A stretch of DNA of 64,000 nucleotides from Promethearchaeota archaeon (GTDB lineage Archaea; Asgardarchaeota; Heimdallarchaeia; Hodarchaeales; Hodarchaeaceae): positions 192,001 through 256,000 of the forward strand of contig JBHLMN010000003.1 in the NCBI GenBank assembly GCA_048938105.1, in the 5' to 3' direction. Positions 3,938-45,266 of the stretch are shown piece after piece (the first letter of the stretch is position 1; each line of letters begins with the position of its first letter). The notes beneath the pieces are model-generated. The model was not told the origin of the DNA, made no database searches, and saw only the letters and a list, made by a program, of their open reading frames with translations. The position numbers were made by a program, and so were the translations under genes.

Positions 3938-5158
3938 TTAAAATCCCATTGGGATTGAAGTTATTTTCTCAAGTTCAGCCTTAATTTCTGGCCTTAATCC
4001 CTCAATGTCGATACTTAAGAATCCTCTAACAATCATGTCTGTTGCTTCTTCCTCAGTCATACCCCGAGCCATTAAATAGTTAAGCTGTTCCTCACCAATT
4101 CGCCCAATGGATGCCTCATGTGACATCTCAAGATCGGGGCGATCGGCAACAAGTTCAGGAATGGCGTGAATTATCCCTTTGGCAAGTAGAAGCCCGTCAC
4201 ATTGCAAATGGGCTTTTATATTTGATGCTCGACCGTCAAGAATCCCCCGAGCAATAATTTTCCCTCCAATGGTAACAGATCGTGAAATAACTTCTGCTCG
4301 GGAACGATCGCCTTGAAGAACAACATGTCCGCCAATATCCATTGTTGAACCTGGATGACCGTACAAGATACTATTGTACCGCGCAGTAGCATCAGCCTCA
4401 ATGTACGTAGTTGGAAAAAGTTGTACAGATTTTACTGGATCCATCACAATGTAATTGTTTGTAAAATTCCCTCCTTCTTTAACTGTGGTTACCGAACGTG
4501 GTCTTACCACAAAATCGTCTTCCCAATTATGGATCATAGTGAAAGTAAGTGAAGCTTTCTCTTCGACATAAAACTCAGATACCCCTACGTGGAGGCCAGC
4601 TTTAGCTGATGTTGCACAACCAGTAATAACGTGGATATCACTCTTTTCTTCTGCTATCACGATATTATGAACGTTCTGAGCACCAAAGTTTTGTGATATA
4701 AAAAGACATGACTGTAAGGGATATGTGATTTTAGCTCCGGCCTTTGCACGAATGAAGTATCCACGAGTCATGTGCAACTCGGTTTGAGACGTAAATTTAT
4801 CAGTATCAATTGGAACATTTTTCCACCAGTAGTCTTTCAAACAATCACTATATTCCTCCCAAGCCTCATCAATAGGCAAAACTTCAACACCAGGATCATT
4901 ACTTTTATGACAAATTGTATCAAAATCGTATTGTAAATAACTTCCAGATGTCCTATTATCATTATCTGAGAATCCTGCTTTTCGTAATAGTGTGATTTCG
5001 TCACGTGAGCTAAGTTCTGATGGATTGACAACAGGTTCGTGGACATTAATTTCTGGAAGTTTATAAGTACTTAAGTCAACATCAACTCCATATTTTGCTT
5101 TTTTTGAGATGGCACGACGTGCTCGTTGTTTAAGCTGGTCATTTGATATTTTTACCAT
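3938..5158 (-). CDS. sufB: Fe-S cluster scaffold SufB/SmsB
   Basis: SufBD beta-helix; 'PLQSCLFI', 'ITGCAT', 'CDGLLL', 'SHEASIGRI.EEQL.YLMARG'; directly downstream of sufC. Confidence 0.92.
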   Translation of the reverse strand: MVKISNDQLKQRARRAISKKAKYGVDVDLSTYKLPEINVHEPVVNPSELSSRDEITLLRKAGFSDNDNRTSGSYLQYDFDTICHKSNDPGVEVLPIDEAWEEYSDCLKDYWWKNVPIDTDKFTSQTELHMTRGYFIRAKAGAKITYPLQSCLFISQNFGAQNVHNIVIAEEKSDIHVITGCATSAKAGLHVGVSEFYVEEKASLTFTMIHNWEDDFVVRPRSVTTVKEGGNFTNNYIVMDPVKSVQLFPTTYIEADATARYNSILYGHPGSTMDIGGHVVLQGDRSRAEVISRSVTIGGKIIARGILDGRASNIKAHLQCDGLLLAKGIIHAIPELVADRPDLEMSHEASIGRIGEEQLNYLMARGMTEEEATDMIVRGFLSIDIEGLRPEIKAELEKITSIPMGF

Positions 5159-5162
5159 TTAC

Positions 5163-5960
5163 TCATCCCCCCACGAGTTTGAATTGCAGTTGATCTTCTA
5201 AGCGTTCATGACATCGGACACACTCAGGATATCCTAAATTCCTGATGTCCTCTAGTAATCGTGATGGGGTTCCAGTGCAACCTATATGACCATGACACAT
5301 AACGTGAGCTCTATCAGTATGAATATAATCCAAAATGTGACCTGTGTGCGTAATAACAAGACCTGCTTTTTTCTTTGACCAAGGTTGTGATGGTGTACGG
5401 GGAGTGGTGCCTAACAACACATTAGTCATCCGACCAATCAGTTTCATGGCTTGAATATCAACCCCTGATTCAGGTTCATCTAAGAGGATGAAATCGGGAT
5501 CTTGAAGAAGTAGTTGTAATAATTCAGATCTTTTTATTTCACCACCAGAAAAGTGTACATTAAGATCTCGATTAAGGAAATCTCTCATTTCGAGTTCTTT
5601 TGCTTTTTTACCAATCTCAGCTGTCGTTTCAATTCTTTGATGCACTAAAAATTCTGTTAGTTTACGTAATTTCAACCCAGGGATATTTGGTGGTCTTTGA
5701 AAGGAGATTCCTATCCCCATCTTGGCCCGGTCTGTGATAGACTTACCTATAATATCACTTCCTTTGAATAAAATCGAGCCATGGACAACACGGTATTGGG
5801 GGAAACCCATAATGGTCTGTATAAGTGTGGATTTTCCAGAACCATTTGGACCAAACAGTACATGGATTTCTCCTTCTGGTATATGTAGATTCAGATTCCT
5901 TAATATGATATTACCTGGTTCTTCTGTTATTTCAACTGTTAAGTTCTTTATTTTCAACAT
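5163..5960 (-). CDS. sufC: Fe-S assembly ATPase SufC/SmsC
   Basis: Walker A GPNGSGKS, 'FSGGEIKRSE', 'LLDEPESG', 'ITHTG'; C-terminal Cys cluster (GCTG...ECVRC) typical of SmsC. Confidence 0.92.
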   Translation of the reverse strand: MLKIKNLTVEITEEPGNIILRNLNLHIPEGEIHVLFGPNGSGKSTLIQTIMGFPQYRVVHGSILFKGSDIIGKSITDRAKMGIGISFQRPPNIPGLKLRKLTEFLVHQRIETTAEIGKKAKELEMRDFLNRDLNVHFSGGEIKRSELLQLLLQDPDFILLDEPESGVDIQAMKLIGRMTNVLLGTTPRTPSQPWSKKKAGLVITHTGHILDYIHTDRAHVMCHGHIGCTGTPSRLLEDIRNLGYPECVRCHERLEDQLQFKLVGG

Positions 5961-6228: not shown

Positions 6229-7293
6229 ATGGACAATCAAATCCACCTTTTATTGGAGGATTTTAAAATTTCCCTATTGAAGAGACTCTTCCGACGTTAT
6301 TCGAAAAAGGAGGAAGAACCCTCTACTCCACTTAAAGAAGAATTGATAACATTTATTGGAGAAGCATATGCAGGAAAAACCACTATTTTACATCGTTTGA
6401 GAACAGGGGAATTCTATAGTAGTTTAGTAAGAACTATGGGATTAAATGTTGACTCTTTTGAGTATCGTAATGTCAAGTTCCAAGCATTTGACTTGGGTGG
6501 CCAAGAATCATTCCACATGATTTGGGGAGATTACTTACGTCTTTCTAATGCTGTAGTTTTTGTCGTAGATTGCTCCAATCCAAACAGTTTTAGGTCAAGT
6601 AAAGCAGCTCTTTATAATGCAATGCCTAGCATTCCCTCAAATGCTGTCCTTCTTATTGTAGCAAATAAAGCTGATATATCAGGTGTTGATCCCTATGTTA
6701 CGCTTCTCAAACACTTTGACCTTTATGATATTCAACAAAAAGGCGAATTTCGTGCCATTAATATATTCCACATGTCAGCAAAGACGGGAATGAACTTTTA
6801 TCAGGCCTTCGATTGGTTGATTGAAACATTAACAGGAGAAATTATTCTTCCTAATATTAATATTCACAACATTTGTATTTATAAAACAGATTCTGGTTTG
6901 CTAGTTGGAAGCAGTATAACTAATCAAGGTCTAACGCAATATGATCCTGCATTATTAACAAGTATGTTCTCAGCAGTAAATACTTTTGCCGAAGCATCCA
7001 TGGGAGCTGGAGTAAGAGAAATACTCATGAAGCGAAGTAAGTCAGCAGGAGCAGATGAGATCTCAGATAATTATAAACTAGTTCGGGTTGAGGAAACAGA
7101 CTTTTCTGTGATCCTCATTGTTAACGAGTCGGACTCCATGAGGAAAAGTATAAAGATAGGTAAAGATCTATTAGTGTGGACGAGATTAAAGATCCCAGAA
7201 CCAGAGAACCTCATTGAGATGATCGAGGGGGAAGAAATTAAAACCTATTTAACTATGAAATTCCCAGAAGACATTGCAATGGTTAGTGCTTAA
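6229..7293 (+). CDS. Arf-like small GTPase fused to C-terminal longin/roadblock-like domain
   Basis: G1 GEAYAGKT, switch I RTMGLNV, G3 FDLGGQ, G4 NKAD, G5 SAK. C-terminal 'IYKTDSGLLV...DPALLTSMFSAVNTFAE...YKLVRVE..FSVILIV'. True start may be about 13 codons downstream. Confidence 0.88.
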   Translation: MDNQIHLLLEDFKISLLKRLFRRYSKKEEEPSTPLKEELITFIGEAYAGKTTILHRLRTGEFYSSLVRTMGLNVDSFEYRNVKFQAFDLGGQESFHMIWGDYLRLSNAVVFVVDCSNPNSFRSSKAALYNAMPSIPSNAVLLIVANKADISGVDPYVTLLKHFDLYDIQQKGEFRAINIFHMSAKTGMNFYQAFDWLIETLTGEIILPNINIHNICIYKTDSGLLVGSSITNQGLTQYDPALLTSMFSAVNTFAEASMGAGVREILMKRSKSAGADEISDNYKLVRVEETDFSVILIVNESDSMRKSIKIGKDLLVWTRLKIPEPENLIEMIEGEEIKTYLTMKFPEDIAMVSA

Positions 7294-7330: not shown

Positions 7331-8935
7331 TTAACGAGTATTCATTCTCTTGAACCACTTTTTATTCTGTTTATAGAGGTTCTTAAATTCTTTAAACAAA
7401 CGATCATATAATAATCGATATTCTGGGTTTGGATAAAACTCTTTGTCAAAATAAATGAAATCCTTAATTTCTGCAGGATCATTTAATTCTTCCAGTGCCA
7501 TTTTAGCTACTATGGCTGCCCCAATAGCTCCAGCAACTTGTGGCCACTTAACTCGCAAAATTCTTCTATTCATGATGTCTGCATAGATTTGACACCAAAC
7601 ATCCGATTTTGCTCCTCCACCTATAATATGTAGTGACTCCACAGGCGAATACATTTTTTCTACAATTTCTAAAGCCCATTTAGCATTAAACGCCACTCCC
7701 TCAAAAATAGATCGAAGTAAATGTCGGCGATTATGATCTAATGATACATTAATCAAGCCAGCTCGTACATGGTCATCATCCAACGGACATCGTTCCCCAA
7801 ATAGCCACGGCATAAATAGCAAATGGGTTCCTCCTTTCCCTTTCGCTCCGGGTTCACATTGTGCAACTAATTCATCGAAGATCTCGTAAACTTGTTTCTT
7901 CTCTTTCTCTTGAAGCTCTTCTTTGAAGTAAAGAATGCTGTTTTTGACCCACTCTAAAGCAGCTCCCGCAATTTCTTGATGAGCGGTGATTAAATAAAAT
8001 TGATCTGGAAAAGCACTGCCTGTACATCCTGTATAATGACTGATATCAACTTTCCTTTCGGAAACATGTCCTAAAACCCATCCACTGGTTCCAATTTGAC
8101 AATGAAGCTCTCCTTCTAAGACTGCTCCCGATCCAATAGCTGCTGCTGGCATATCACCTATACCACAAACAATTTGTGTTTCTTTTGAGAGACCAAGAAC
8201 ATTAGCTGCTTCATCTGTCAAGTTACCAATAATATCCGTAGGTTTTCGAATTTCGGGGAGTCTATTCATGTCAATTTTGTAAGTTTTACAGAGAGATTTT
8301 GACCATTCATTAAGAGGTTTCCCGTCTTTTTTCCGAGTATCAACCAACCAATACAAATAAGCTAAATCTGTGCTGGTAACCATCTCCCCTGTTAAGCGAA
8401 AAATAATATAATCTTTAACATCCAAATATTTGTAACATTTTTCATATATTTCAGGATGTTTATCTCTTAACCATAAGATTTTAGGGATTTGATCTTTCCC
8501 AGTCAGACCTGGGGCGCCTCCTGTTATACGGAGAAACTTCAAAATCCGAAGGGGACTGTATCCAAGTACTCGTGGCCAGGGGTAGACTTTGTGTAAATAT
8601 TCAGCTCCACGAGCATCTAACCAGATCATACAGTTCATTAAAGGAGAACCACGTTCATCTACAGGTAATAATCCTTGTGTTTGAGAACAGAAGGTCAATG
8701 CAGTAATTTCATCTTTTTGTGTTTGGGTTTTTTCGAGAACTGCTTTTGTTGTTGAAACTAGTATTCTCCACCAATCCTTTGGATCATGCTCAGCGTAACC
8801 TTGTTGCGGGTAAAGCGTGTTAAATTCTTCTACTGCAGAGTCAATTAATTTCATTTCGTTAGATACAAGAACAGCTTTAGTTGCTGTCGTTCCCAAATCA
8901 TAAGCTAAGAATTTTTCAGCACTCAAACCTATCAA
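7331..8935 (-). CDS. FGGY-family carbohydrate/polyol kinase (xylulokinase-like)
   Basis: 'AYDLGTTATKA', 'IWLDARG', 'GIGDMPAAAIGSG', 'IGTSGW', 'GERCP', 'GGGAKS..WCQIYAD'. Confidence 0.92.
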   Translation of the reverse strand: MIGLSAEKFLAYDLGTTATKAVLVSNEMKLIDSAVEEFNTLYPQQGYAEHDPKDWWRILVSTTKAVLEKTQTQKDEITALTFCSQTQGLLPVDERGSPLMNCMIWLDARGAEYLHKVYPWPRVLGYSPLRILKFLRITGGAPGLTGKDQIPKILWLRDKHPEIYEKCYKYLDVKDYIIFRLTGEMVTSTDLAYLYWLVDTRKKDGKPLNEWSKSLCKTYKIDMNRLPEIRKPTDIIGNLTDEAANVLGLSKETQIVCGIGDMPAAAIGSGAVLEGELHCQIGTSGWVLGHVSERKVDISHYTGCTGSAFPDQFYLITAHQEIAGAALEWVKNSILYFKEELQEKEKKQVYEIFDELVAQCEPGAKGKGGTHLLFMPWLFGERCPLDDDHVRAGLINVSLDHNRRHLLRSIFEGVAFNAKWALEIVEKMYSPVESLHIIGGGAKSDVWCQIYADIMNRRILRVKWPQVAGAIGAAIVAKMALEELNDPAEIKDFIYFDKEFYPNPEYRLLYDRLFKEFKNLYKQNKKWFKRMNTR

Positions 8936-8957
8936 TCCACTTTCAAGACGATTTTTG

Positions 8958-10337
8958 TTACATGTAATCTATAGCTTCAATGAGACTATTCTCAAATACT
9001 TCTAAAATATGATCAGAGTCCTCACGAGTGATAATTAATGGGGGTTTTATTTTTAGGATATTCCTAAAGAGTTTTCCACTATCTGAGGATATGGGGGCAG
9101 AATGACCAAAGATGACTCCCTGACTCATAGCCTCCTCAATGAGATCGGAGCATAAAGCATTAGCAGGTTCTTTAGTTTCAGGATCTTTGATGAGCTCAAT
9201 TCCAATAAAAAGCCCTGGACACCTAATATCTCCAATAACATCATATTTTTTTTGCAATTGCTTTAATTTGGATGTTAGGTAATCACCCTGTTCACGAGTG
9301 TTTTTTAAAAGATCAGCTTTTTCAATATAGTTGAGAAACACCAAACCCGAGGCAAACATGAGCGGATTAGCACCGAAAGTCGTGTGTTCCTCTGCAGCAT
9401 TGAATCCAATCAAATTATCTCTAGCAATTGTTACTCCCATTGGTAAACCACCACCAATTGCCTTTGTAAGACAAGTAATGTCAGGAATAACTCCATTATA
9501 GTAATCTGATGCAAACCAATAACCAATACGAGTAAAAACTTGTGATTCATCAAAAATTAAGAAGATATCATTCTTTTGAGTGAATTGTTGAAGTCCTTGA
9601 AGATATCTTTCAGGAGCAGGGATGTGACCACCTGGTGCTTGTAATGGCTCCATCAATATTCCACATACTTTGTCAACTGATCCATACTCAATCATATATT
9701 TTGCAAGTTCTAAACACTCTAAATGACAGGTTTTCTCACTCTCTTGGCCCATAGGACAACGATAACAATAAGGAAAAGGTATTTTAGAGACTTTATCAAA
9801 ACCCCAAGGCCGAAAGCGCGTCACGCCAGCAAATCGAGTAGAAAGGGTCATAGTAGCTAGGGAACTACCATGATAACTTCGAGTAAAGGTATAGAAATGT
9901 TCTGCATCTGGTTTATTAATCATAGCTAAACGTAAAGCAGCTTCAACAGCTGCTCCGCCCCCCATTGCATTAACCGCGATCTTTTTTAGGTTTCCAGGGG
10001 TAATACTAGCCAATTTGTGAATGAATTTAATACGAGGAACAGTTGGAAAACCATAACGAACATGGGTCAACCGTTTTAATTGTTCCCCTACAGCAAACGC
10101 AACATCAGGATTGGCAAAGCCAATATTACATGTCCATGCTTGAGCCGTACAATCCAAAAATTCTTTCCCAGTATAATCTTTTAAGTAAGCTCCATGACCT
10201 TCAAGAAATAATTGATCATAGAAAGGTACTAAGCTTTTTTTATGAACCTCATCTATTTCATTATCAGTTATGTCTGTGATCCAAGATAATATTTCATCAT
10301 CTTTGAAAAGTCGTTTTTGATGCTCCATTTTCATCAT
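8958..10337 (-). CDS. Class-III PLP enzyme, probable amino-alcohol-phosphate phospho-lyase (ETNPPL/PHYKPL-like) rather than a transaminase
   Basis: Class-III motifs 'SYHG', 'FDESQ', 'TKAIGGG', 'HTTFGANP'. Carries 'NILKIKPPL' and 'THVRY' as in phospho-lyases. The fold call is firm; the lyase call is inference. Confidence 0.8.
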   Translation of the reverse strand: MMKMEHQKRLFKDDEILSWITDITDNEIDEVHKKSLVPFYDQLFLEGHGAYLKDYTGKEFLDCTAQAWTCNIGFANPDVAFAVGEQLKRLTHVRYGFPTVPRIKFIHKLASITPGNLKKIAVNAMGGGAAVEAALRLAMINKPDAEHFYTFTRSYHGSSLATMTLSTRFAGVTRFRPWGFDKVSKIPFPYCYRCPMGQESEKTCHLECLELAKYMIEYGSVDKVCGILMEPLQAPGGHIPAPERYLQGLQQFTQKNDIFLIFDESQVFTRIGYWFASDYYNGVIPDITCLTKAIGGGLPMGVTIARDNLIGFNAAEEHTTFGANPLMFASGLVFLNYIEKADLLKNTREQGDYLTSKLKQLQKKYDVIGDIRCPGLFIGIELIKDPETKEPANALCSDLIEEAMSQGVIFGHSAPISSDSGKLFRNILKIKPPLIITREDSDHILEVFENSLIEAIDYM

Positions 10338-10521: not shown

Positions 10522-10899
10522 TCATTCACGGATTCGTTCTTTCATACTAAATGGAAGATCCCCATATTCTTCAGTTAATAGCTTCGTGAATCTAATTTTA
10601 TATTTCTCTTTAGGTAATGGGTTAACTCGTTCAAAATACAATGTAGCTAGAGTTTTAACAGAGAATTTAACTGGATTCTGCTCTGTTATTTCCTTATTAT
10701 TCACTTTCTCTCCATCGAGATCAATTGTAAAATCTTTAAACTTCTCTTTTTCTATTGATTCGCTTTTAATCTCCAGTTTTATTGGAGCGATAATAGTTGC
10801 ATCACTTATAGTATTTTTCATTTGGAGTTGGAATCCACTCTCATTATTCTTGAACGATTTTTTTACAAATAACTGACGTAGTAAATCCTCGTTTACCAT
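10522..10899 (-). CDS. Small beta-rich conserved hypothetical protein (DUF6379-like / resembles the N-terminal accessory domain of some HMG-CoA reductases)
   Basis: 'LLRQLFVKKSFKNNESGFQLQMKNTISDATI' pattern; SD-like AGGAG before ATG. Confidence 0.5.
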   Translation of the reverse strand: MVNEDLLRQLFVKKSFKNNESGFQLQMKNTISDATIIAPIKLEIKSESIEKEKFKDFTIDLDGEKVNNKEITEQNPVKFSVKTLATLYFERVNPLPKEKYKIRFTKLLTEEYGDLPFSMKERIRE

Positions 10900-11115: not shown

Positions 11116-14064
11116 ATGAAGAAGCATAACTGGGGAATTACTTTTATTTTGATATTTTGTTTGATTTCTGTTTTTTCGGCCACAAAGACCACAGAATCTT
11201 CAAATAGTAAATTATCTAGACCTCTAGAAACACCCCAAGCGACCTTTTCTATCGCTGATAGTGAGGGCCCCATTATTGGATTACCATCTTTAAATAACAC
11301 GAATCCTAATAGTGATGAAGGTGTTGAGGTAACGTTTCCTATTGATGATATTGACGGTGTGCAAAATGCGACATTATTCTGGGAATATACTTTCAATAAC
11401 AGTCAATATAATCACACGGTTTACAATACAATTAGCGATCGTGAAATTCGTTTAAGAAATACTGACTTTCCTAATCCTGTCTATATTTATCAGACTGGTG
11501 TAGAAAGCCCATCTATAACAAATTGGGTATATGGTGAATACATCTTTAATGAATCATGTGTTTCAGTGATAGATATAACAATCGAAGGAGATTTTCGTTC
11601 CAATTTAGTTTATGTCCTTATCCAAGCAAAGAATATTTCTACAGGCTTATGGCAAACTGTCCATGAGAATGGTGCTGATGGATATACGCAAACTCTACCA
11701 GGAAATGATGAAGATTATTATAGTAACGACCTTACACTTGGTTATAAAATCAGTGCGGTAACATATAATAGTGGTGGGGATCCTAATCCTCCTGAATTTG
11801 ATACTCTTGACATTTGGCGAGAGGAAGTTGTGTGGGATATTCCTGCGGCAAACAAAGCTACTTTTGTAGACTATTATGTTAGAGCATTTGATGACCTTAA
11901 CCAAAGTATTTTGTCGCCCACATACACCTTCCTCATGGATTATACCCCTTCTGTATCAATTATGGCGGTACCACCTGTTCTTAGTGCAAACGACGACTAT
12001 ATTCTTAATGTTTCAGTAATAGACCGAGATGGAACAGTAAACAAAAGCAGTGGTGTTGCTTATTATCAATTTGTTGGTGATACCAATTGGACTGCAATTA
12101 GTTTGAATCATCAATATAAAATACCAACTGTACCATATCCAACTCACTTTTTTAATGGTACAATTCCAGCTAGTAACCTTGGAAATGTTGAGACTTATTT
12201 GATTGTTAGGGTTAATGTTTCTGACATGGTAGAAGACAAAAAAGGACGCGAAGGGACTTCTGGAGATCGTTGGATTCGTATCGATAGCCTAGCCCCGAGA
12301 GTTAGCGATATATCGATCGATGGTGGGACTATTATTGAGAATGTTACGTTACCCACTTCACCAGTGTATATCGAAGCAGAATTCGTGGATGCAAGGGGAA
12401 TTAAGTCAGTATTCATCTATTATTCCCTACCAAATGGAACAATACCAATCAAAAAGGAAATGACAAATTTATCATTCACGAGTCCCTATGATTCTCCTGT
12501 ATGGTTTAATGTCACCTTACCTAAGTCAAACATAACTGCTTTTGTAGAGTACTTTTTCGAAACAGAAGACTTTTTTGGAAATAAAGGAAATACTTCGGTA
12601 AATTTCTATTATTCAGACGGATCAGGACCAGTATTAGATACTCTTTCCCTATATCCATCTGTTATTAGTAACTATACTAAAGTACTTGTCCTTTTCAATT
12701 CATCTGATTATTCTGGAACAATGCAATCAGTAGTTTGGTATAGTTTTGACAATCAAATATCTTGGATACCTATTGGGGCTAATCAAATTAATTATCAAGC
12801 CAATATGGACTCAGAAACTTTCACAGCAACTGATCTTCATTATATAAAAGATAACGCAATGAGTTATTTCCCTCTTGAAGTAATTCGAAGCATACCTGTA
12901 GATGAAGCAATATTAACGTTTGAAATAACTCATGAAATGCCCACTGATTTACGAATTTGGCTCAAATTAGACGATGGCAGACGATTCTTACTCTATGATC
13001 GTGAACCTGGTCCAAATACTTTTACCAGAAATATTGATCTTACAAATTTAGGCATTAACGAAAATGATTTCACTAAGGGGAATTTTACTCTGGAAATTCA
13101 AGATTTTTCAGATATCTATTCTGGGTCAATCTTAAATTTCGAAATTGAAATTAGGGATTATAAGTATCCACTTGGCTACCAATATTACGTAGAGATTCCA
13201 GCTTCAGTAAATGATACAATAGTGTTTTTCTATATCAATATGACGGATAATCTGTGGAATTCAGAAAACACCTCCCTCTATCAATACTATGCAGATGGTA
13301 CCGCTCCAAATATAAATATGATACAACTTTCATCACCCATGAATCTTGCTGGAAAACATTATATTCGAGTATCTGCAAATATTATAGATCAAGGAGGTGT
13401 TTTTGGAGCAGATGCTTACTACAAATTTTCTGAGGACGATTATTGGGTTATAGGTACAATGTCTCTAAACAGTACATCAGGAAATTACTTCTTTGATGTT
13501 CCCATTTCCAGTGAAAATGGAACATTGTTTTATAAAGTCCGTGCTTTTGATCTTGCAGGACTTTCATCGGAAACAGCAGTATATTCAGTAAGTTACTCTC
13601 ATGGTCTAGCTCCATTTATCGAAATTCAAGGAATTCCTTACCCATCCCCACTTGATATGGAAGGTAAAAATACAATCAGGATTTGGGCTAATGTTACAGA
13701 TTTTGATGGACAAGTTGTCAACTGCACTATTGGTTACCGATTTACTGATGCTGATGAATGGAAATTTGAGGACATGGTTTATGATGAGGAGACAGGTTAC
13801 TATTACTTCGATGTCAAAGTCAATACAAAGAGTGGTAATTTGACTTTCATCATCGTGGCTTCTGATAATCTGGACTTAACATCGGAAAGTGACCCCTATA
13901 CAATTGAATTCGTTAATGCTGGTACCACTCCTGGACTTCCAACTGATCTTCTCCTCTTTGGAACTGTTTTAGCTGTTGGCGGAGGTGGATCAATAGCAGC
14001 AATTGTTTATTTATCTAAAAAGGGAAAACTCAAACTTCCTGAGAGATTTAGTAGAGGAGACTGA
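11116..14064 (+). CDS. Secreted, C-terminally anchored surface glycoprotein with tandem Ig-like repeats and a proprotein-convertase P-domain
   Basis: Signal peptide; repeats ending 'YYVRAFD/YFFETED/FYINMTD/YKVRAFD/FIIVASD'; P-domain 'ITHEMPTDLRIWL...GNFTLEIQD...GSILNFEIEI'; many N-x-S/T sequons; C-terminal TM plus basic tail. Confidence 0.8.
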   Translation: MKKHNWGITFILIFCLISVFSATKTTESSNSKLSRPLETPQATFSIADSEGPIIGLPSLNNTNPNSDEGVEVTFPIDDIDGVQNATLFWEYTFNNSQYNHTVYNTISDREIRLRNTDFPNPVYIYQTGVESPSITNWVYGEYIFNESCVSVIDITIEGDFRSNLVYVLIQAKNISTGLWQTVHENGADGYTQTLPGNDEDYYSNDLTLGYKISAVTYNSGGDPNPPEFDTLDIWREEVVWDIPAANKATFVDYYVRAFDDLNQSILSPTYTFLMDYTPSVSIMAVPPVLSANDDYILNVSVIDRDGTVNKSSGVAYYQFVGDTNWTAISLNHQYKIPTVPYPTHFFNGTIPASNLGNVETYLIVRVNVSDMVEDKKGREGTSGDRWIRIDSLAPRVSDISIDGGTIIENVTLPTSPVYIEAEFVDARGIKSVFIYYSLPNGTIPIKKEMTNLSFTSPYDSPVWFNVTLPKSNITAFVEYFFETEDFFGNKGNTSVNFYYSDGSGPVLDTLSLYPSVISNYTKVLVLFNSSDYSGTMQSVVWYSFDNQISWIPIGANQINYQANMDSETFTATDLHYIKDNAMSYFPLEVIRSIPVDEAILTFEITHEMPTDLRIWLKLDDGRRFLLYDREPGPNTFTRNIDLTNLGINENDFTKGNFTLEIQDFSDIYSGSILNFEIEIRDYKYPLGYQYYVEIPASVNDTIVFFYINMTDNLWNSENTSLYQYYADGTAPNINMIQLSSPMNLAGKHYIRVSANIIDQGGVFGADAYYKFSEDDYWVIGTMSLNSTSGNYFFDVPISSENGTLFYKVRAFDLAGLSSETAVYSVSYSHGLAPFIEIQGIPYPSPLDMEGKNTIRIWANVTDFDGQVVNCTIGYRFTDADEWKFEDMVYDEETGYYYFDVKVNTKSGNLTFIIVASDNLDLTSESDPYTIEFVNAGTTPGLPTDLLLFGTVLAVGGGGSIAAIVYLSKKGKLKLPERFSRGD

Positions 14065-15339: not shown

Positions 15340-15777
15340 TCACGGATACTCTACATCTTCGATCTGTGTGCATTTGACAAGTTCCTGTGTGGCTTTCACA
15401 GCACGTAACATTTTAGCCATATTTTTGGGACTACATTGGACTTTGAATTTACGTTGAAGAACCCCCTTTAATGGATCCAGTGTCGTATCGAAAACCTTTA
15501 ACCAATGGCCATATTTGCCGCCAAAAATATATGCTACGTTTTCTGGGGCAGGTTTTTCAGGAGTTACGTAATAAGCTCCTCGACATTTGCCATGCCACAG
15601 ATCCACGTATACCCTTCGTTCCTCAGTAAAGGTACCTGTACCATCAGGAGTAAATATGAATACAAAATCTCCTTCCCAAGTAGCAGCTGCTTTTGCGTAC
15701 GCTTCACTTCCGTTAAGTTTCTTCACAACAGCATCTAGCCACTCCTGTTCGCCGAATATGATTTTATCATTACCCAT
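15340..15777 (-). CDS. SCP2 sterol/lipid-binding domain protein
   Basis: 'FG..EWLD...KLN....YAKAAATWEGDF...DLWHGKCR...LDPLKGVLQRKFKV'. ATG at 15777 is preceded by SD AGGAGG; track start 15936 is over-extended. Confidence 0.85.
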   Translation of the reverse strand: MGNDKIIFGEQEWLDAVVKKLNGSEAYAKAAATWEGDFVFIFTPDGTGTFTEERRVYVDLWHGKCRGAYYVTPEKPAPENVAYIFGGKYGHWLKVFDTTLDPLKGVLQRKFKVQCSPKNMAKMLRAVKATQELVKCTQIEDVEYP

Positions 15778-15961
15778 TTTATCATTCCTCCTAAATTGAC
15801 CAATTAATTGTATTAGTTTGAGAATATTAGGACACGATTTAAGAGTTACTGTGAGTGCCTCACCCATTCTAAACTTTACAATAGCTAAATAAATTGAAGA
15901 TAGAGAAAAAACTAAAAACCTAAATAATGAAACCAATTCAGTATTTTGGGGTATTTATAAA

Positions 15962-17836
15962 ATGTATGGTTATATAGGTAAGATATTACGAGTGAACCTG
16001 TCAAATGGAACAATAACGGAAGAATTTCCTGATAATGATACTTTGAAAATGTTTCTAGGGGGAGCGGGACTAGCAACTAAATATCTCTTCGATGAAGTCA
16101 AAGCAGGAATCGATCCTCTGGGTCCTGAAAATAAACTTATTTTCATGACTGGCCCGATGACTGGTACTTCATCTCCTAGCACAGGACGATATTCAGTAGT
16201 TGCTAAATCTCCTCTTACAGGATTCTGGGGTCATGCGAACTCAGGAGGGTTTTGGGGGCGAGATCTCAAGAGATCAGGCTTTGATGGGGTTATTTTCGAG
16301 GGAGTCTCTGAAAAACCCGTCTATCTTGTAACTGATGAAGGAAAATTCGAACTAAAAGATGCTACGCATCTTTGGGGTAAAAACACCTCAGAAACAACAA
16401 GACTAATCAAAGAAGAGCTTGGAGAGAAGTTCAATGTCGCTTGTATAGGAATTGGAGGAGAAAATTTAGTCAAGTTCGCGGCAATAATGAATGATGCTAA
16501 TGAAGCAAATTGGGGTCGGGCTGCTGGAAGATGTGGTTTAGGAGCAGTTATGGGATCTAAAAAGTTGAAAGCTGTCGCCTCACGGGGCACAGCAAAAATC
16601 AATGTTTCAGATCCAGCTAAATATAAAGAGGAGGCGAAGAAGCGGTTCGATTGGGTAAATCAGAGCTTGTTAAAAATATCCCTCGAAGTATTCGGAACAG
16701 CTGTAATGCTTGATCTTGTTAATGAAAAAGGTGGATTTCCTACCAGAAATTTTCAACTTGGGATGTTTAAGGAATCAGCGAAAATTAATGGTGAGGCGAT
16801 TAATGATAACATACTCGTTGAAAGAAAACCATGTTTTGCATGTCCCATCCATTGTGGAAGGATCTCGGAAATTAAAACAGGACCATACTCTAGCAAGGGA
16901 GAAGGGCCAGAATATGAGTCACTATGCTCTCTTGGTAGTATGTGTGACATCGATAACCTAGAGGCAATCACATATGCTCACTTTCTATGCAATGAGTATG
17001 GTTTAGATTCGATATCTACAGGAGCAACAATTGCCTTTGCAATGGAGTGTGTTGAAAAGGGAATTCTATCTGATACTGATGGATTAGAGATTAGCTTTGG
17101 TGATGCAAATGTCATGCTTGAACTTGTTCATCGAATTGCTAAAAGAGAAGGAAAACTTGGAAATTTGTTAGCTGAAGGGACAAAGGTTATTTCTGAAAAA
17201 TTGGGCCACGGATCCGAAAAATTTGCCATGCATGTTAAAGGTCTCGAATTACCAGCATATGATAGTAGATCAGCAAAGATAACAGGTGTAGGATTCGCTA
17301 CTGCTAATCGTGGAGGAGACCATATGACTTCTTTCATTGAGGGACCTACCTTTTTGGCTCTACCATTCACTCTTGTTGATGGTGAACTAAGTGATGACCT
17401 AGAAGCAACTCCAGAGGATACTAGAATTCTCAAAGATTATGAGGATGCTTTTGGTGTATTTGACTCCATTGGTGGTTGTAAGTTCATGGGAATGGTACTT
17501 ACAGGAGAGGACTGGGCAACATTAATTGCCACACTCTTCGGTTGGGAAGACTTCACTGAAAAGGATTTTCGAAAAACAGGTGAAAGAATTTTTAATCTTC
17601 AAAGAGCCTATAATATCAGAGAAGGGTTAACCAGAGCTGATGATACACTTCCAAAACGGTTATTAGAAGAACCAATGCCTGAGGGGCCCGCGAAAGGACA
17701 TACGGTGGATCTGGAACCTCTTTTGGACGCTTATTACGCAAATCGAGGATGGAATAAAGATGGAATCCCAACTTCTGATAAACTTCAAGAATTAGGATTA
17801 GATTGGTTATCGAAAGAGATAAGCAAAGATTATTAA
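15962..17836 (+). CDS. aor: Tungsten-containing aldehyde:ferredoxin oxidoreductase
   Basis: 'GYIGKILRVNLS', 'KSPLTG', 'RAAGRCGLGAVMGSKKLKA', 'CFACPIHC', 'EGPEYE', 'DTLPKRLLEEP', 'YY..RGW..DGIP'. Confidence 0.96.
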   Translation: MYGYIGKILRVNLSNGTITEEFPDNDTLKMFLGGAGLATKYLFDEVKAGIDPLGPENKLIFMTGPMTGTSSPSTGRYSVVAKSPLTGFWGHANSGGFWGRDLKRSGFDGVIFEGVSEKPVYLVTDEGKFELKDATHLWGKNTSETTRLIKEELGEKFNVACIGIGGENLVKFAAIMNDANEANWGRAAGRCGLGAVMGSKKLKAVASRGTAKINVSDPAKYKEEAKKRFDWVNQSLLKISLEVFGTAVMLDLVNEKGGFPTRNFQLGMFKESAKINGEAINDNILVERKPCFACPIHCGRISEIKTGPYSSKGEGPEYESLCSLGSMCDIDNLEAITYAHFLCNEYGLDSISTGATIAFAMECVEKGILSDTDGLEISFGDANVMLELVHRIAKREGKLGNLLAEGTKVISEKLGHGSEKFAMHVKGLELPAYDSRSAKITGVGFATANRGGDHMTSFIEGPTFLALPFTLVDGELSDDLEATPEDTRILKDYEDAFGVFDSIGGCKFMGMVLTGEDWATLIATLFGWEDFTEKDFRKTGERIFNLQRAYNIREGLTRADDTLPKRLLEEPMPEGPAKGHTVDLEPLLDAYYANRGWNKDGIPTSDKLQELGLDWLSKEISKDY

Positions 17837-18824: not shown

Positions 18825-20543
18825 TTGGTGAGAGTCTTGACTGAAAAAATGACATATGCTGATAAACCTTGGATAAAATCTTACAAGGTTGGACCGTATA
18901 AACTCCCAAAAACTATGAAACCCTATCCTAAAATTCCTGTAACTAAATTTCTTGATGATGCTGCAACAGATTATCCAGATAACATTGCATGTACATTCAT
19001 TGCAGGAGAGTACAAAACAGATTTAACATACTCTGAGTTGAAGCTACAAGTAGATAAACTCGCAACAGCTCTTGATGGTTTAGGAGTGAAAAAAGGGGAT
19101 AGAGTTGCGACCATTCTACCTTCTTGTCCTCAATTCATTATGGCTGATTATGCAATCATGAAACTTGGAGCGGTGCATGTTCCACTCAGTATCTTACATA
19201 AAGCTCCCGAAGTGCTATATGAATTAAAAGAATCTGGCACTGAAACCGTTATATGTTCCTTTAGACGTCTTGAAAGAATTGATGCAATTAAAGATGAGAT
19301 TAAGTTAAAAAATGTGATCTATACACCAATCCCTTTATTTCCTGATTATTCAATCCCTGAAATGATAAAATTACCTGAAATTGTTAATCTACACCGATTT
19401 GAAGATTTAATCAAAAAAAGTGACAGTAATCCTCCAACAGTCGAAATCAATCCAATGGAGGATCTTGCATTACTCCCATTCACAGGGGGAACGACAGGGG
19501 TTCCAAAAGCAACTATGTTAACTCATTATAACATCACGACTAACGTGATTCAGTCAGTCCAGTGGATGATGCATCCTTTACGTGCAGGTATCAAAGGGAA
19601 AGCTGCTGCATTAATCTGTCTCCCCATCTTTCATCAGGCAGGGCATTTTTTGATGCATGCTGGAATTTCATGGGGATTGCGTGGCTTCTTAATTGATGGA
19701 CGGGATCTATTATTAATAATGGATATAATCAATGAGCATCGTCCGTTCATTGTAGGCGGTGTACCAACACATTACATGTTACTACTTGACAATCCAAACC
19801 TAAAAAGGATACCCATTTTCTTCTTCTCTGGTGCAGCTGCTTTACCACATGATGTTGCAGAAAGGTGGGAAAAAAAAGTTGGGACTCCATTGAGCGAGGG
19901 ATATGGTATGACAGAAGCATGCGCTGTTACTCATATGAATCCATCGGGCCTTTCTAAAGTCACTGGTTTTATGTCAAAAGCAAAGAGATCAGTGGGAGTC
20001 CCTGTTGCTGATACAGAGGTGAAAATTATCAATCTAGAGACAGGTGAAGAAGTCCCCTTTGGTGAACCAGGTGAACTGTGGATTCGTGGACCTCAAACTA
20101 TGAGAGGCTACTGGCCAACAGTAGGTAAGGGGTTACAAGAAGGGGGCTGGTTAGCTACTGGTGATGTTGCGAAAATGGATGAGGATGGCTACTTTTACAT
20201 TGTCGACCGCATAAAAGATATGATTAATGTCAGTGGAATGAAGGTCTACTCTCAAACTGTCGATGATGTATTGCATGGCCATCCTGCAGTTAGTGTTGCA
20301 GGTGTGATTGGAGTTCAGGATCCAGAACGTCCAGGTAGTGAGAGAGTTAAAGCATTCGTGGCTCTAAGAGATGATTATAGAGAGAAGATTACTTCTGATG
20401 ACATACTTCAGTATTGCAAGGACAATCTCCCCTCATACGCTGTCCCAAAATATATTGAAGTTAGAGAATTGTTACCACTGACCCCAGTTATGAAACTTGA
20501 TAAGAAAAGATTAAGAGAAGAAGAGAAGTCACAAAAACTATGA
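18825..20543 (+). CDS. Long-chain fatty-acid--CoA ligase (FadD-like)
   Basis: 'FTGGTTGVPK', 'EGYGMTE', 'TGDVAKMDEDGYFYIVDRIKDMI', terminal Lys in 'PVMKLDK'. Confidence 0.93.
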   Translation: MVRVLTEKMTYADKPWIKSYKVGPYKLPKTMKPYPKIPVTKFLDDAATDYPDNIACTFIAGEYKTDLTYSELKLQVDKLATALDGLGVKKGDRVATILPSCPQFIMADYAIMKLGAVHVPLSILHKAPEVLYELKESGTETVICSFRRLERIDAIKDEIKLKNVIYTPIPLFPDYSIPEMIKLPEIVNLHRFEDLIKKSDSNPPTVEINPMEDLALLPFTGGTTGVPKATMLTHYNITTNVIQSVQWMMHPLRAGIKGKAAALICLPIFHQAGHFLMHAGISWGLRGFLIDGRDLLLIMDIINEHRPFIVGGVPTHYMLLLDNPNLKRIPIFFFSGAAALPHDVAERWEKKVGTPLSEGYGMTEACAVTHMNPSGLSKVTGFMSKAKRSVGVPVADTEVKIINLETGEEVPFGEPGELWIRGPQTMRGYWPTVGKGLQEGGWLATGDVAKMDEDGYFYIVDRIKDMINVSGMKVYSQTVDDVLHGHPAVSVAGVIGVQDPERPGSERVKAFVALRDDYREKITSDDILQYCKDNLPSYAVPKYIEVRELLPLTPVMKLDKKRLREEEKSQKL

Positions 20544-21324: not shown

Positions 21325-22899
21325 ATGACTCTCAAGCATGCAATTACATTGGAATCCGAGGAAGGCCTTAAAGAACTCCTAGACTTTCTTCGTCAAACAG
21401 GTATTCATTTTTCCTCTGAATACGAAGAGAGAGTAAGTAAGAGGTTAAGAATCGTAGCAGAGATAAACGGTTTCAAGAATTACTTTGAATTACTAAATTT
21501 GTTAAATGTTGACTCACAAACTCGTATAAATCTATTTAATTGGTTAGAAAACGGGAAGGCTTACAATGAAACAGAAAATTCTTTCATTCCTTTAGTTAAG
21601 CGTTATAAAAATCAAGAAAAATACATAGATGCCTCAAAGAAGAAGAGAAAGAAGATAGTAAGTAAAATTAAAATTAATAAATGGGAGAAATCACAAACAG
21701 CTATTGAAAAAGAAGAAATTTGGTCTGAATCAGAAAAAGACTTGAAAAAACTACTAAACTTTTTTAGACGTAAGAAAGTAAATTTCGCATCTAAAGATGA
21801 AGTAAGAATAATTAAACGGTTAAGGCTAATAACAAAGAGACTTGGCCTCAAGAGTTTCTTAGAGTTGTTGAATTTGTTAAGTATTGATCCACAAACTCTT
21901 GAGGGTGTATTGAGCTGGTTGGAAAAAGGAAAAGTCTACAATGAAGAGGTAAATTCGTTCACCCCTCTCATAAGACGAGAGAATATTTTGAAAGACTCTT
22001 TTCCACAAAAAGAAACAAGAACTAAGAGGAAAAAAAAGAAACAAAGAGGGGGTTTTTTGAATTTTTTACCCTCAATTCCTGACCCACCTGATACAAGAAA
22101 CCTTTCGTCAATCTATGACTTTTTGTCCAAAAATGATATTAATTTTGGGGCTTACAAAGAGAAGTACTTCCTAAGGCGCCTACATAGCCGAATGTTGAAA
22201 GTTGATGCGACTACTTATCAAGAGTACCAAGAAATTTTAGAAACTGATCCATCAGAAATTAGTTTGCTTATTGATAATCTATCTATAAATGTAACCCGGT
22301 TTTTTAGAGATAAGGATCTGTGGACTAAACTAAACACAGAAATCCTGCCAATAATTAGTTCAGATATATCTAAATCGATTCGTGTTTGGAGTGCTGGTTG
22401 TGCAATTGGTCCAGAACCCTACAGTATTGCTATACTCATGTTTGACAGATTCAAAAATTCTATTCTAGATAACCTTCAAATTTTAGCAACAGATATCCGT
22501 CAGGAATTTTTGGAACAGGCAAAAGCCGGAATATATTCGAAAGATCTATTAGAAGAAATGAATCCAGTAAAAATCCAAAAATATTTCAAGCCTCTGGGTA
22601 GTGAATTATTCCAACTATCTGTAAACATTCGAAATAAAGTTACGTTCAAATTTCATGATCTTAGAAAATCCCCTCCTTTCCGCAATTTAGATCTAATAAT
22701 ATGTCGCAATGTATTAATCTATTTTTCAAGAACCCAAAGTGAAAAACTTTTTCAGCGCTTTCATTCAGCACTAAATTCGAAAGGGTATCTTGTGCTGGGT
22801 AAATGCGAACTCGTTCCTATACCTGTAAGACATCTATTCACGGTTATTGACGCAAAAACTCGGATTTATCAGCGAAAGAAACTTGAAGATGTCATATAA
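21325..22899 (+). CDS. CheR-family protein-glutamate methyltransferase with duplicated N-terminal extension
   Basis: 'INVTRFFRD', 'RVWSAGCAIGPEPYSIA', 'ATDI', 'DLIICRNVLIYF', 'GYLVLG'; two about 85-aa repeats precede the core. Confidence 0.88.
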   Translation: MTLKHAITLESEEGLKELLDFLRQTGIHFSSEYEERVSKRLRIVAEINGFKNYFELLNLLNVDSQTRINLFNWLENGKAYNETENSFIPLVKRYKNQEKYIDASKKKRKKIVSKIKINKWEKSQTAIEKEEIWSESEKDLKKLLNFFRRKKVNFASKDEVRIIKRLRLITKRLGLKSFLELLNLLSIDPQTLEGVLSWLEKGKVYNEEVNSFTPLIRRENILKDSFPQKETRTKRKKKKQRGGFLNFLPSIPDPPDTRNLSSIYDFLSKNDINFGAYKEKYFLRRLHSRMLKVDATTYQEYQEILETDPSEISLLIDNLSINVTRFFRDKDLWTKLNTEILPIISSDISKSIRVWSAGCAIGPEPYSIAILMFDRFKNSILDNLQILATDIRQEFLEQAKAGIYSKDLLEEMNPVKIQKYFKPLGSELFQLSVNIRNKVTFKFHDLRKSPPFRNLDLIICRNVLIYFSRTQSEKLFQRFHSALNSKGYLVLGKCELVPIPVRHLFTVIDAKTRIYQRKKLEDVI

Positions 22900-22984: not shown

Positions 22985-24322
22985 TTAAAATCTTGTATCA
23001 GAAACTCCCCACGCCTCCATCGCTCGTACAAGCTCTGGGTATTCTTCTTCATGTTCTTCAACGTAATCTTCGAAGTCCTCACTTGCAGCAGCTAAATCCT
23101 TCATCCCAATATCGATAGCTTGACGGAAAGCTTTAGCTCCAGCAACAGGACCATCAGGATGAGCATGAATCCCTCCACCTGATCCAATCATTATATCTTT
23201 TCCAAGATCCTGCATAACTCTTATAACCATCCCAGGGGTAATTCCACCCGAAGGCATGGGTAGGCTTGGTTTTAAGTGATGCATCCGATAACGGTGAGCT
23301 TTTGCAATACCAAGATATTTTTCTTTTAAATAGGGAGCTTTTCCATAAGGTGCTGGATAAACAACAATATCAGCTCCAGCTAACCTAGCAAGCTTTCCCA
23401 TTATTAGAAAAGATGAAACTCCTGAATATGGCGACTCATAAAAAGCTCCAGCGAAGTCCATATGAGCGAGAATTGGCAATTTGACTTCTTTATCTTCTGC
23501 TAACATCCTCAATGCAGGAAGCCCAACGACTAAATAATTCAGCATTAATGCGTTTCCTCCAACATCTTGGACAGCTAACGCGTTTTCCTTTAATTTTGTG
23601 ATTTTATCGGTAATATTCACAGTATAAAGAGTTTCCTCTCCCGTTTCTTCCCGCACTTTGTCTACTGCTTCCATCATGATAGGAACTCTATCACTTATCT
23701 TATTATAATCCATATCAGCGATAAGTTCATCATCTTTGACAACATCACACCCACCTAAAGCAGCGGAATAAAATAACTGTGCTCCTACCTCTGGAGTCCA
23801 ACCACTACATGGCTTGATCATATTATTTAATAGAGGACGATCTGGAACTTTAAGCAACTTTCGAATTCCTGTGATACCAAATTTCGGTCCTTTAAAATTC
23901 TTGATCCACTTTTTAGGAAATCGAAGATCCAATAATTTTAACTTCCCACCCATTGAAATGTTCCCAATGGTAGCTGTTAGCATGAGGCCAATCTGATCTG
24001 TTTGATTAATAGCAGGAAAAGCGATTTGGTAGATGTAATTACGTTCCTCAACGTTTTTAGGAACTTCAAACTCGTATGAGGGAACCTCATAAAGACCAAT
24101 TACTTTAGCACCAAATTTTGATCGCAATTCAGGAGTGTTAGCAGGGACAGGTACCCAGGTACCAGTTGACTGCTCACAGGCAGCAGCTCTCCCTATAAAC
24201 CAAGGATCCATCCTAGGTCCAAGTTGAACCATATAAGTACCAATAATGTATTCTTCAGGATTGATACCCTCTTGAAGAGCTTCTTCAATATGATCATACT
24301 GAGTAAAAATATCCTTAGACAT
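22985..24322 (-). CDS. RuBisCO-like protein (form IV)
   Basis: 'ACEQSTGTW', 'GPKFGI.GIR', 'MIKPC', 'DVVKDDE', 'LAHMD', 'PSGG', 'GGGIHAHPDG'. Substitutions at K177, R295 and H327 equivalents. ATG start at 24322. Confidence 0.9.
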   Translation of the reverse strand: MSKDIFTQYDHIEEALQEGINPEEYIIGTYMVQLGPRMDPWFIGRAAACEQSTGTWVPVPANTPELRSKFGAKVIGLYEVPSYEFEVPKNVEERNYIYQIAFPAINQTDQIGLMLTATIGNISMGGKLKLLDLRFPKKWIKNFKGPKFGITGIRKLLKVPDRPLLNNMIKPCSGWTPEVGAQLFYSAALGGCDVVKDDELIADMDYNKISDRVPIMMEAVDKVREETGEETLYTVNITDKITKLKENALAVQDVGGNALMLNYLVVGLPALRMLAEDKEVKLPILAHMDFAGAFYESPYSGVSSFLIMGKLARLAGADIVVYPAPYGKAPYLKEKYLGIAKAHRYRMHHLKPSLPMPSGGITPGMVIRVMQDLGKDIMIGSGGGIHAHPDGPVAGAKAFRQAIDIGMKDLAAASEDFEDYVEEHEEEYPELVRAMEAWGVSDTRF

Positions 24323-24471
24323 GTTTTCAACACCAAGATAATAAGAGTTGGATAGGAAATTAAGGTTTTTCATTTGAGATGAATACTAGTGGAAAGTTTT
24401 ATCAAATATTAAGTTCGTATCTACTGGTTATTAAACCTCATTTTGAATAAATCCTCTGCAGGTGTAAAAAA

Positions 24472-31639: not shown

Positions 31640-32068
31640 TCATGGCATGATATCTGTGTCTTTCAAAGTCTTTCTCTTCGCATGTCGTGCTATGTCTATA
31701 GCTCCCTTAGCTAGTGTGTAGCAATATGCTTCTAATTGCTTGTTTAAGTAGTCTACAGCGTCAGCTGATACTCGTGACGCGCCAGATTCTCGAATCACTC
31801 TTTCTACACGTGCTTTAGCAAACGCTCGAGATTTTGGGCCAGTGGGACTCATCTTAGGAGCACCAATCTTTGAAACAGCTAACTTGATATCATCAGATTG
31901 TACTGTCTTACGACCGGCAGTATTTGCCAGATTAATTGCTGTTTTTGATGCCTTCCCGCCAAATTCAGCACAAAGCTCGTCCATTCGCGCAATAGCCTTT
32001 GCAGATATTCTTTCCGCACCAGCGGACTTCATAATTGCTTCAATTCGTGCTTTTGCAAATGTTGCCAT
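31640..32068 (-). CDS. Archaeal histone doublet (two tandem histone folds)
   Basis: Fold 1 'FAKARIEAIMKSAGAERIS...AGRKTVQSDDI'; fold 2 'FAKARVERVIRESGASRVS...HAKRKTLKDTDI'; strong SD GGTGA. Confidence 0.95.
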   Translation of the reverse strand: MATFAKARIEAIMKSAGAERISAKAIARMDELCAEFGGKASKTAINLANTAGRKTVQSDDIKLAVSKIGAPKMSPTGPKSRAFAKARVERVIRESGASRVSADAVDYLNKQLEAYCYTLAKGAIDIARHAKRKTLKDTDIMP

Positions 32069-37264: not shown

Positions 37265-37450
37265 AATTAGATATTGATTACTTTGTCAATGACCACTGAA
37301 TGAGTTTAGTGGCTTGTAGCTAGCACTTCCCTCTGACTCAATAAGGCAATTGTTTCAGTTAGGGGGAGTACCGCTACATTAGGACTATTGACGGAAGCCC
37401 TCCCGATCAAGGCTTTACCAAAATCGGATAGGTTGCGAGCAGCATTAAGA
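37265..37450 (-). ncRNA. Predicted TnpB omega/reRNA overlapping the tnpB 3' end, with guide from the flank
   Basis: By analogy with characterised TnpB loci. The scaffold ends at the right-end TGAC and the flank gives guide AAAGUAAUCAAUAUCUAAUU. The 5' boundary is a guess. Confidence 0.5.
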
Positions 37451-43210: not shown

Positions 43211-43639
43211 TTATGCTCTAGAAACCACTTTGAAAGAAATATATTTCATACCTTCAATTGTACGAAGTTTCTTCATCAATATACGAATATTATTAACAGA
43301 ATCACTAATGATCAAATTCTCTAAACATTCTCCTTTTTTTAAATGATAATGTGTTGAAAAGACTACATTCGAATGATGTTGTACTTCTAAGAACTTTTGA
43401 ATTGTTTTTTGGTCATAATGGTCATAAACAACTGAAATTGTAACTGTAATGTCAGTATCACTCGCAGTAATGTTATTAAGAACCTCCTCTGATTCAAAAA
43501 AGCTTTGAAGTGCATCTCTTATCATTTGCGAGGTATTTTGATACCCAAATTCTTTTACTTTAGTGTTAATAAGATTTTTAAAACCCTGCTCACAAGAAAA
43601 AGTAATAGTCTCACGATTACCCTTCTGGTTCATCTTCAA
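43211..43639 (-). CDS. nikR: Nickel-responsive regulator NikR
   Basis: RHH 'ITFS...GYQNTSQMIRDAL', 'VVYDH', 'VQH', 'STHYHL...CLE'; last gene of the ECF metal operon. Confidence 0.88.
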   Translation of the reverse strand: MKMNQKGNRETITFSCEQGFKNLINTKVKEFGYQNTSQMIRDALQSFFESEEVLNNITASDTDITVTISVVYDHYDQKTIQKFLEVQHHSNVVFSTHYHLKKGECLENLIISDSVNNIRILMKKLRTIEGMKYISFKVVSRA

Positions 43640-45245: not shown

Positions 45246-45266
45246 AAAGAAGTAAAAAAACTAATA

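Follow-up and report, generated by a model that had tools for sequence, protein, structure and literature searches.

Among described systems, the closest counterparts of the gene pair treated here are the phospho-lyases ETNPPL, PHYKPL and A1RDF1 (structures 6TOR and 5G4I; profile PRK06148), pyridoxal phosphate (PLP)-dependent enzymes of the class-III fold that carry two basic residues before a Pro-Pro, an Arg-Tyr near the N-terminal loop and no Glu switch, and that are partnered by a kinase of the HYKK/APH type. A second described kinase-PLP pair consists of the DAGK-like sphingosine kinase and sphingosine-1-phosphate (S1P) lyase (SGPL1; StSPL, 3MAD). HisC, a biosynthetic enzyme of class I/II, converts an amino-alcohol phosphate into a keto phosphate. 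A further class-III enzyme, the (R)-1-hydroxy-2-aminoethylphosphonate ammonia-lyase PbfA, resembles the PLP enzyme reported here in having been misannotated as a GABA aminotransferase and found by its neighbourhood. Form IV RuBisCO-like proteins (RLPs) that use 1-phospho-2-keto substrates include MtnW/YkrW (2OEK, 2ZVI), which has an apolar P2 pocket, and the RLPs of apiose catabolism, which catalyze decarboxylation and transcarboxylation/hydrolysis (PMC6302742). Here, we analyze 64,000 nucleotides of a Promethearchaeota archaeon of the Hodarchaeales (contig JBHLMN010000003.1, positions 192,001 to 256,000; "the window"), in which a class-III PLP enzyme adjoins a kinase of the FGGY family and a Form IV RLP is encoded nearby. 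While the folds and kinase-PLP catabolic pairs are already known, their combination is probably undescribed: a literature search, covering largely papers readable without subscription, returned no description of a module of RLP, FGGY kinase and aminotransferase, nor of anaerobic sphingolipid-backbone breakdown without S1P lyase. The pair and the RLP probably form a new oxygen-free route for sphingosine-type lipid backbones, in which the PLP enzyme more probably replaces the amine by a ketone than removes the phosphate.

The gene pair and its third partner

An earlier sequence-only reading of this locus had proposed that two co-oriented genes, 22 bp apart, encode a phospho-lyase-type PLP enzyme and an FGGY kinase, and that automated annotation would call them 4-aminobutyrate aminotransferase and xylulokinase. 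Both open reading frames (ORFs) are intact on the minus strand with a gap of 22 bp and the kinase downstream, and the source annotations are indeed 4-aminobutyrate aminotransferase-like and xylulokinase, although neither protein reaches any family cut-off among the NCBIfam profiles. The kinase is of the FGGY and not of the APH type, while the reference phospho-lyases have a fused or adjacent phosphotransferase. The third partner, the Form IV RLP, had been missed. The features concerned are the following.

8958-10337, minus strand: class-III PLP enzyme P0001, 459 aa, of an uncharacterised K-x-K subfamily; proposed 2-amino-alcohol-1-phosphate aminotransferase
10134-10154, minus strand: DCTAQAW of the PLP enzyme, with invariant T64 and Q66, where phospho-lyases show D-x-x-N-N-V-x-H
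10053-10067, minus strand: THVRY (residues 91-95) of the PLP enzyme, with H92 and invariant R94
9627-9650, minus strand: EPLQAPGG (residues 230-237) of the PLP enzyme, a motif without Glu
9447-9473, minus strand: CLTKAIGGG of the PLP enzyme, with the Schiff-base Lys292
9036-9065, minus strand: RNILKIKPPL (residues 425-434) of the PLP enzyme, with K429 and K431, a probable phosphate-binding pair
7331-8935, minus strand: FGGY kinase P0002, 534 aa, TTG start, below the xylulokinase cut-off; proposed long-chain-base kinase
22985-24373, minus strand: Form IV RLP, 52-58% identical to RLPs that are co-operonic with the pair elsewhere

Residues, family and fold of the PLP enzyme

The PLP enzyme bears all marks of class III (PF00202), namely the Schiff-base K292, D263, Y155, T320 and G126-G127, and its predicted structure (predicted local distance difference test, pLDDT, 90) matches class-III folds at Z 48-50, where DGD, GabT, racemases and ETNPPL tie within Z 2 and are not separated. 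The subfamily to which it belongs is tight, comprises sequences from Asgard archaea and Anaerolineae, and is represented in about 141 of 399 Asgard genomes; the closest homologs of the enzyme are named Hodarchaeales/Heimdallarchaeota. Across 119 full-length homologs T64, Q66, R94, T99, R102, Q266, K292, E316, H318 and K431 are invariant, and K429 (115/119) and H92 (118/119) nearly so; therefore, the K-x-K, the H-x-R-Y and the Glu-less motif, to which the sequence-only reading had drawn attention, are family traits and not chance. The consensus at residue 234 is Gly (113/119; EPxQG[PA]GG), the Ala of the window being a local variant. The absence of Glu, taken earlier as a phospho-lyase mark, is real but not diagnostic, because the transaminases Tpa and BioA lack it likewise.

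Because K429-I-K431-PP aligns with the KIKPP of human ETNPPL (6TOR) and with K412-M-R414 of A1RDF1 (5G4I), a dianion site at the phosphate position of ETNPPL is likely. The likeness ends at the N-terminal loop, which was mapped onto 6TOR and 5G4I via a proxy sequence: T-x-Q-A-W replaces the N-N-V-x-H of the motif D-x-x-N-N-V-x-H/x-[VI]-G-H, NNV being found in all five plasmid references, 6TOR and 5G4I, and the invariant R94 lies near R90 of A1RDF1 but one residue out of register in sequence alignments. Identity to the phospho-lyases is about 27-32%. The first PLP tree was a quick search only. An approximately unbiased (AU) test rejects a joint clade of the PLP enzyme with the phospho-lyase family (p-AU 0.0108), the latter being represented by six bacterial proxies, of which one exceeds the PRK06148 cut-off (E 5e-139 to 6TOR). 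The phospho-lyase-type label thus fits the K-x-K site, but neither the loop nor the clade: the enzyme may act in the manner of a phospho-lyase, yet it stands outside the ETNPPL/PHYKPL family.

A convergently evolved ammonia phospho-lyase would turn the kinase product into inorganic phosphate, ammonia and an acyloin or aldehyde for an iron-containing alcohol dehydrogenase (Fe-ADH) or an aldehyde:ferredoxin oxidoreductase (AOR), with the RLP engaged elsewhere. We consider this unlikely: it would account for the aligned basic pair, for the resemblance of R94-Y95 to R90-Y91, for the missing Glu switch, for the tie with 6TOR at Z 48 and for the Fe-ADH and AOR encoded close by in this genus, but loop, register and clade speak against it, this genome yielded no S1P lyase as a source of phosphoethanolamine (best match 24-28%), and the RLP and its loci, described below, point elsewhere.

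Two other identities were rejected by profile scores, that of a GabT/ArgD 2-oxoglutarate transaminase (QAPGG in place of QGEGG with its Glu, and Lys in place of the R398-type Arg; TIGR00700 206 vs. 507 bits, TIGR00707 196 vs. 410 bits) and that of PbfA (NF049939, 220.5 vs. 525 bits). The chemistry of PbfA could still be shared, since this class-III enzyme can eliminate water beside a bound phosphonate (PMC8154272): if the C3 hydroxyl were eliminated and the phosphate left in place, such an ammonia-lyase would yield a 2-keto 1-phosphate without a 2-oxo acid acceptor, with P1 still available to the RLP. Such a reaction is very improbable given a score far under the PbfA cut-off, the absence of K-x-K from PbfA, which branches apart and belongs to phosphonate operons, and a product unlike that of the dehydrogenase replacing the PLP enzyme at other loci.

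Gene neighbourhoods and replacements of the PLP enzyme

The PLP gene lies directly before the FGGY gene in 14/14 other distinct loci examined in the same genus and in the Asgard family f14; in the Asgard family f11 a single HisC-like gene separates the two, and the pairing recurs in Anaerolineae/Chloroflexota; PLP genes without an adjoining kinase occur in families f9, f12, f13, f19, f20 and f31. Operons of the order PLP>FGGY>RLP are found in Anaerolineae/Chloroflexota, on metagenome contigs and in f11. The RLP adjoins the pair in f14, accompanies the PLP enzyme without a kinase in genus g76 of f31, and lies 8.5-15 kb from the pair in 7 genomes of the same genus. Its subfamily occurs in 241/399 Asgard genomes, and in 119 of the 141 that have the PLP subfamily, among which kin are not independent. 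Genes of a GAF-PAS histidine kinase and a GNAT acetyltransferase are also found within the Anaerolineae operons (L103, L109, L110).

Of the RLP loci that include a kinase, this PLP enzyme is encoded at 24 and a saccharopine-dehydrogenase-like oxidoreductase at 18, the two never occurring together; these counts take in kin and repeats. Other RLP-kinase loci have a class-III aminotransferase resembling glutamate-1-semialdehyde (GSA) aminomutase, and in the f11 operons (L043-L046) the enzyme encoded between the PLP and FGGY genes is a HisC-type aminotransferase above the TIGR01141 cut-off. HisC itself is of an unrelated subfamily, but its chemistry, from a 2-amino-alcohol 1-phosphate to a 2-keto 1-phosphate, is the one that we propose. 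As all these replacements interconvert amine and carbonyl, they point to a product that keeps its phosphate; the shared product suited to the RLP would be a 2-keto 1-phosphate, which a phospho-lyase would destroy, leaving the RLP without a substrate. It is mainly these replacements, together with the need of the RLP for a phosphate, that favour transamination from context, and phosphate elimination, the reaction expected by the sequence-only reading, is disfavoured by the redox character of the replacements as well as by the intact P1-phosphate/Mg site predicted for the RLP.

At the level of genomes, the saccharopine-dehydrogenase-like enzyme is found in 0/4 genomes of f11, 0/6 of f14 and 6/135 of f20, all PLP-bearing families, with the reverse pattern in f31-33 (59/89), while strict exclusion between PLP enzyme and dehydrogenase fails in f1, f9, f12 and f19. 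Their coexistence in f1, f12 and f19 would suit a racemase or epimerase that inverts C2 of the amino-alcohol phosphate for a dehydrogenase-linked route, and the best PDB sequence matches of the PLP enzyme are isoleucine 2-epimerase and archaeal racemases; yet identity to these is about 30% and such a dehydrogenase is missing from f11, f14 and most genomes of f20, making this function extremely unlikely.

The FGGY kinase and its likely substrate

P0002 falls short of the xylulokinase profile (TIGR01312, 308 vs. 380 bits) and outside the XylB group, so that an identity as XylB was rejected; an autoinducer-2 (LsrK) reading was likewise abandoned, matching neighbours not being seen and cut-offs not being reached. 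The kinase belongs to a 75-member FGGY clade (99% FastTree support, in a tree with long-branch warnings) apart from XylB and from most sugar-operon kinases of the sister clades, and its basic amphipathic insert after WxDxR has 42 residues compared to 30-32 in XylB. Clade kinases neighbour genes of S1P lyase, RLP, class II aldolase and ceramidase. In Spirochaetota, seven of them directly precede a group-II PLP gene, and the one product tested matches 3MAD at E 2.8e-196 and is clearly an S1P lyase; the loci L279 (5468-14922) and L280 carry two units one after the other, kinase>S1P-lyase-like gene and TetR>kinase>GSA-like aminotransferase>RLP. At two actinobacterial S1P-lyase loci, no FGGY gene lies within 6 kb. 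Other clade kinases are accompanied by a class II aldolase, an enzyme that requires a ketose-1-phosphate-type substrate, as well as by a GSA-like aminotransferase, and three such loci adjoin a ceramidase. Kinase, aldolase and aminotransferase genes of these kinds are present on plasmids of cultured Butyrivibrio fibrisolvens and Burkholderia ambifaria (L267:6989-11586; L268:6971-13715), the latter locus having in addition a short-chain dehydrogenase/reductase and an aldehyde dehydrogenase, and both organisms are tractable models of this aldolase variant. The closest non-Asgard relative of P0002 (53%) is encoded in a genome of the phylum Bacteroidota (L273:7002-8585), with no pathway genes nearby.

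The substrate of the PLP enzyme is very likely an amino-alcohol phosphate made by the kinase; phosphorylation of a vicinal amino-alcohol, as in the sequence-only reading, is thus probable in light of the K429/K431 alignment. Among the substrates listed there, a lipid base is the best candidate because of the links of the kinase clade to S1P lyase and ceramidase, and the base is likely long-chain. First step and substrate would then be those of the sphingosine kinase-S1P lyase pathway, and clade kinases directly precede real S1P lyases in other genomes; the kinase is FGGY and not DAGK-like, however, and the proposed route would deaminate and then cleave through the RLP.

The same kinase-transaminase-RLP chemistry might instead serve a short hydrophilic substrate (an amino-polyol, an amino-sugar alcohol, a compound of the threoninol/serinol type or one derived from S-adenosylmethionine). 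Sister PLP clades share T-x-Q, H-x-R and K-x-K and neighbour sugar ABC transporters, an SIS isomerase, a DeoC-type aldolase and distant FGGY kinases, the RLP is closest to the MtnW enolase, and the lipid genes of the window are specific to this genus. Since the sugar-operon kinases lie mostly outside the P0002 clade, which is tied to S1P lyase and ceramidase, and the P2 site of the RLP appears apolar, we regard a short substrate as unlikely. On a plasmid of Sinorhizobium sp. BG8 (L210:4640-16000), a sister-clade K-x-K PLP enzyme is encoded near an FGGY kinase, an aldolase-like gene and an ABC transporter; this arrangement, seen too in L143-L168, is a separate uncharacterised pathway of amino-sugar type.

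The RuBisCO-like protein

The RLP of the window is orthologous to the operonic RLPs, and its closest PDB match is MtnW (E 1e-79). In spinach RuBisCO numbering, equivalents of E60, N123, K175, K201, D203, E204, H294 and K334 are kept, while K177, R295 and H327 are replaced by Cys, Met and Val. From these residues the P1/Mg site is predicted to be intact and the P2 site apolar. The three substitutions exclude a full carboxylating RuBisCO catalytic set. An identity as the MtnW enolase of 2,3-diketo-5-methylthiopentyl-1-phosphate was rejected too: Asn stands at the position of Lys98 of MtnW, equivalents of E60 and K334 are retained, the scores are below the MtnW and OiaX cut-offs (347 vs. 409 and 300 vs. 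514 bits), and the neighbours are kinase and aminotransferase, with no mtn genes seen beside it. A methionine-salvage reading of the whole module was set aside since matching neighbours were not seen and cut-offs were not reached. This genome also encodes another RLP of this subfamily, 54% identical, next to which no pathway genes lie (L114:7554-8909, C53), and a more distant RuBisCO-family gene (29%), by eye of form III (L117:5998-7299).

Proposed route and its weighing

We tentatively propose that kinase, PLP enzyme and RLP make up a three-step anaerobic catabolic route. The FGGY kinase would phosphorylate a 2-amino-1,3-diol at C1; the most likely compound of this kind is a sphingoid long-chain base, for instance sphinganine. 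The PLP enzyme would grip this phosphate via K429 and K431, probably also R94 and H92, and transaminate C2, giving a 1-phospho-2-keto-3-hydroxy chain with the C1-C3 skeleton of ribulose-1,5-bisphosphate; retention of the phosphate by transamination is reasonably probable. The RLP would enolise the keto-phosphate at its Mg/P1 site, while the former P2 pocket, which is apolar, would take up the alkyl tail, and C2-C3 would be cleaved. RuBisCO-type carboxylation would yield 3-phosphoglycerate and a fatty acid, but that the RLP carboxylates is doubtful. Phytosphingosine, a 2-amino-1,3,4-triol, could give an aldolase substrate on transamination, whereas sphinganine, a 2-amino-1,3-diol without the C4 hydroxyl, would need another cleavage, which the RLP could supply. 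The far-reaching version is improbable: in it, Asgard archaea and anaerobic bacteria would degrade sphingoid bases to 3-phosphoglycerate and fatty acid by means of an FGGY long-chain-base kinase, a new class-III aminotransferase that binds the phosphate, and an RLP that truly carboxylates.

Several points weigh against this proposal. A phospho-lyase, too, would be expected to have K-x-K at the ETNPPL position, and PLP adducts readily eliminate beta-phosphates. The pairing, whose conservation in other genomes the sequence-only reading had called for, holds at the same-genus loci, in f14 and in Anaerolineae/Chloroflexota, but a linked kinase is found at only 20 of 60 Asgard PLP loci, 40 having none. 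Sister PLP clades lie in plain sugar operons. This genome and most of the genus hold both the PLP enzyme and a dehydrogenase-kinase pair, so that PLP enzyme and dehydrogenase are not strictly redundant; in this genome the alternative module is a saccharopine-dehydrogenase-like gene followed by a second clade kinase, 41% identical to P0002 (L115:6355-9168, C61). The kinases linked to S1P lyase are about 38-42% identical to P0002, the RLP has no K177, and the ceramidase profile PF04734 is unmatched in this genome, its controls also being silent. Finally, the route is built from genes, motifs, clades and neighbourhoods, from which we infer all of its reactions.

The proposal offers a concrete substrate and an order of reactions, both open to testing, for three subfamilies so far uncharacterised: one of class-III PLP enzymes, one of FGGY kinases now annotated as xylulokinase, and one of Form IV RLPs, very common and routinely taken for a methionine-salvage enolase or for a mark of carbon fixation. 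If it is true, class-III enzymes acquired a K-x-K phosphate site on two occasions, with differing reaction outcomes, and sphingoid-type molecules are handled by Hodarchaeales, which are closely related to eukaryotes.

Other features of the window

Between the pair and the RLP are genes for lipid and aldehyde functions, in an arrangement confined to this genus, and a small protein gene directly precedes the PLP gene.

10522-10899, minus strand: HMG-CoA_red_N/CGDB beta-sandwich protein, 125 aa, directly upstream of the PLP gene; near the module also in L103, L112, L137, L166 and L202
14112-15308, minus strand: Fe-ADH, accessory, near the pair in this genus only
15340-15780, minus strand: SCP2-like lipid carrier, 146 aa (feature score 0.95, no Pfam hit), accessory, this genus
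15962-17836, plus strand: AOR, accessory, this genus
18825-20543, plus strand: AMP-binding acyl-CoA ligase, accessory, which could activate a released fatty acid

A scan of the window for promoters and terminators gave results at chance level, with a method ill-suited to archaea. Small GTPases that were judged Arf-like by eye and have additional domains at the C-terminus are encoded at 6229-7293 (plus), convergent with the kinase gene in most of the genus, and at 48258-49208 (minus). Three large proteins look secreted (11116-14064, 24472-28452 and 49571-53044), the first without a Pfam hit and the others metalloprotease-like and repeat-rich by eye. A 142-aa protein (31640-32068, minus) resembles a fused tandem archaeal histone doublet. 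Also recognized by eye were a CheR-like methyltransferase with a duplicated N-terminal segment (21325-22899), a TnpB-like (IS605 OrfB) ORF (37306-38466), a SufB/SufC-like pair (3938-5960) and genes of a NikR-like regulator and a CbiM/Q/O-like transporter (43211-46288).

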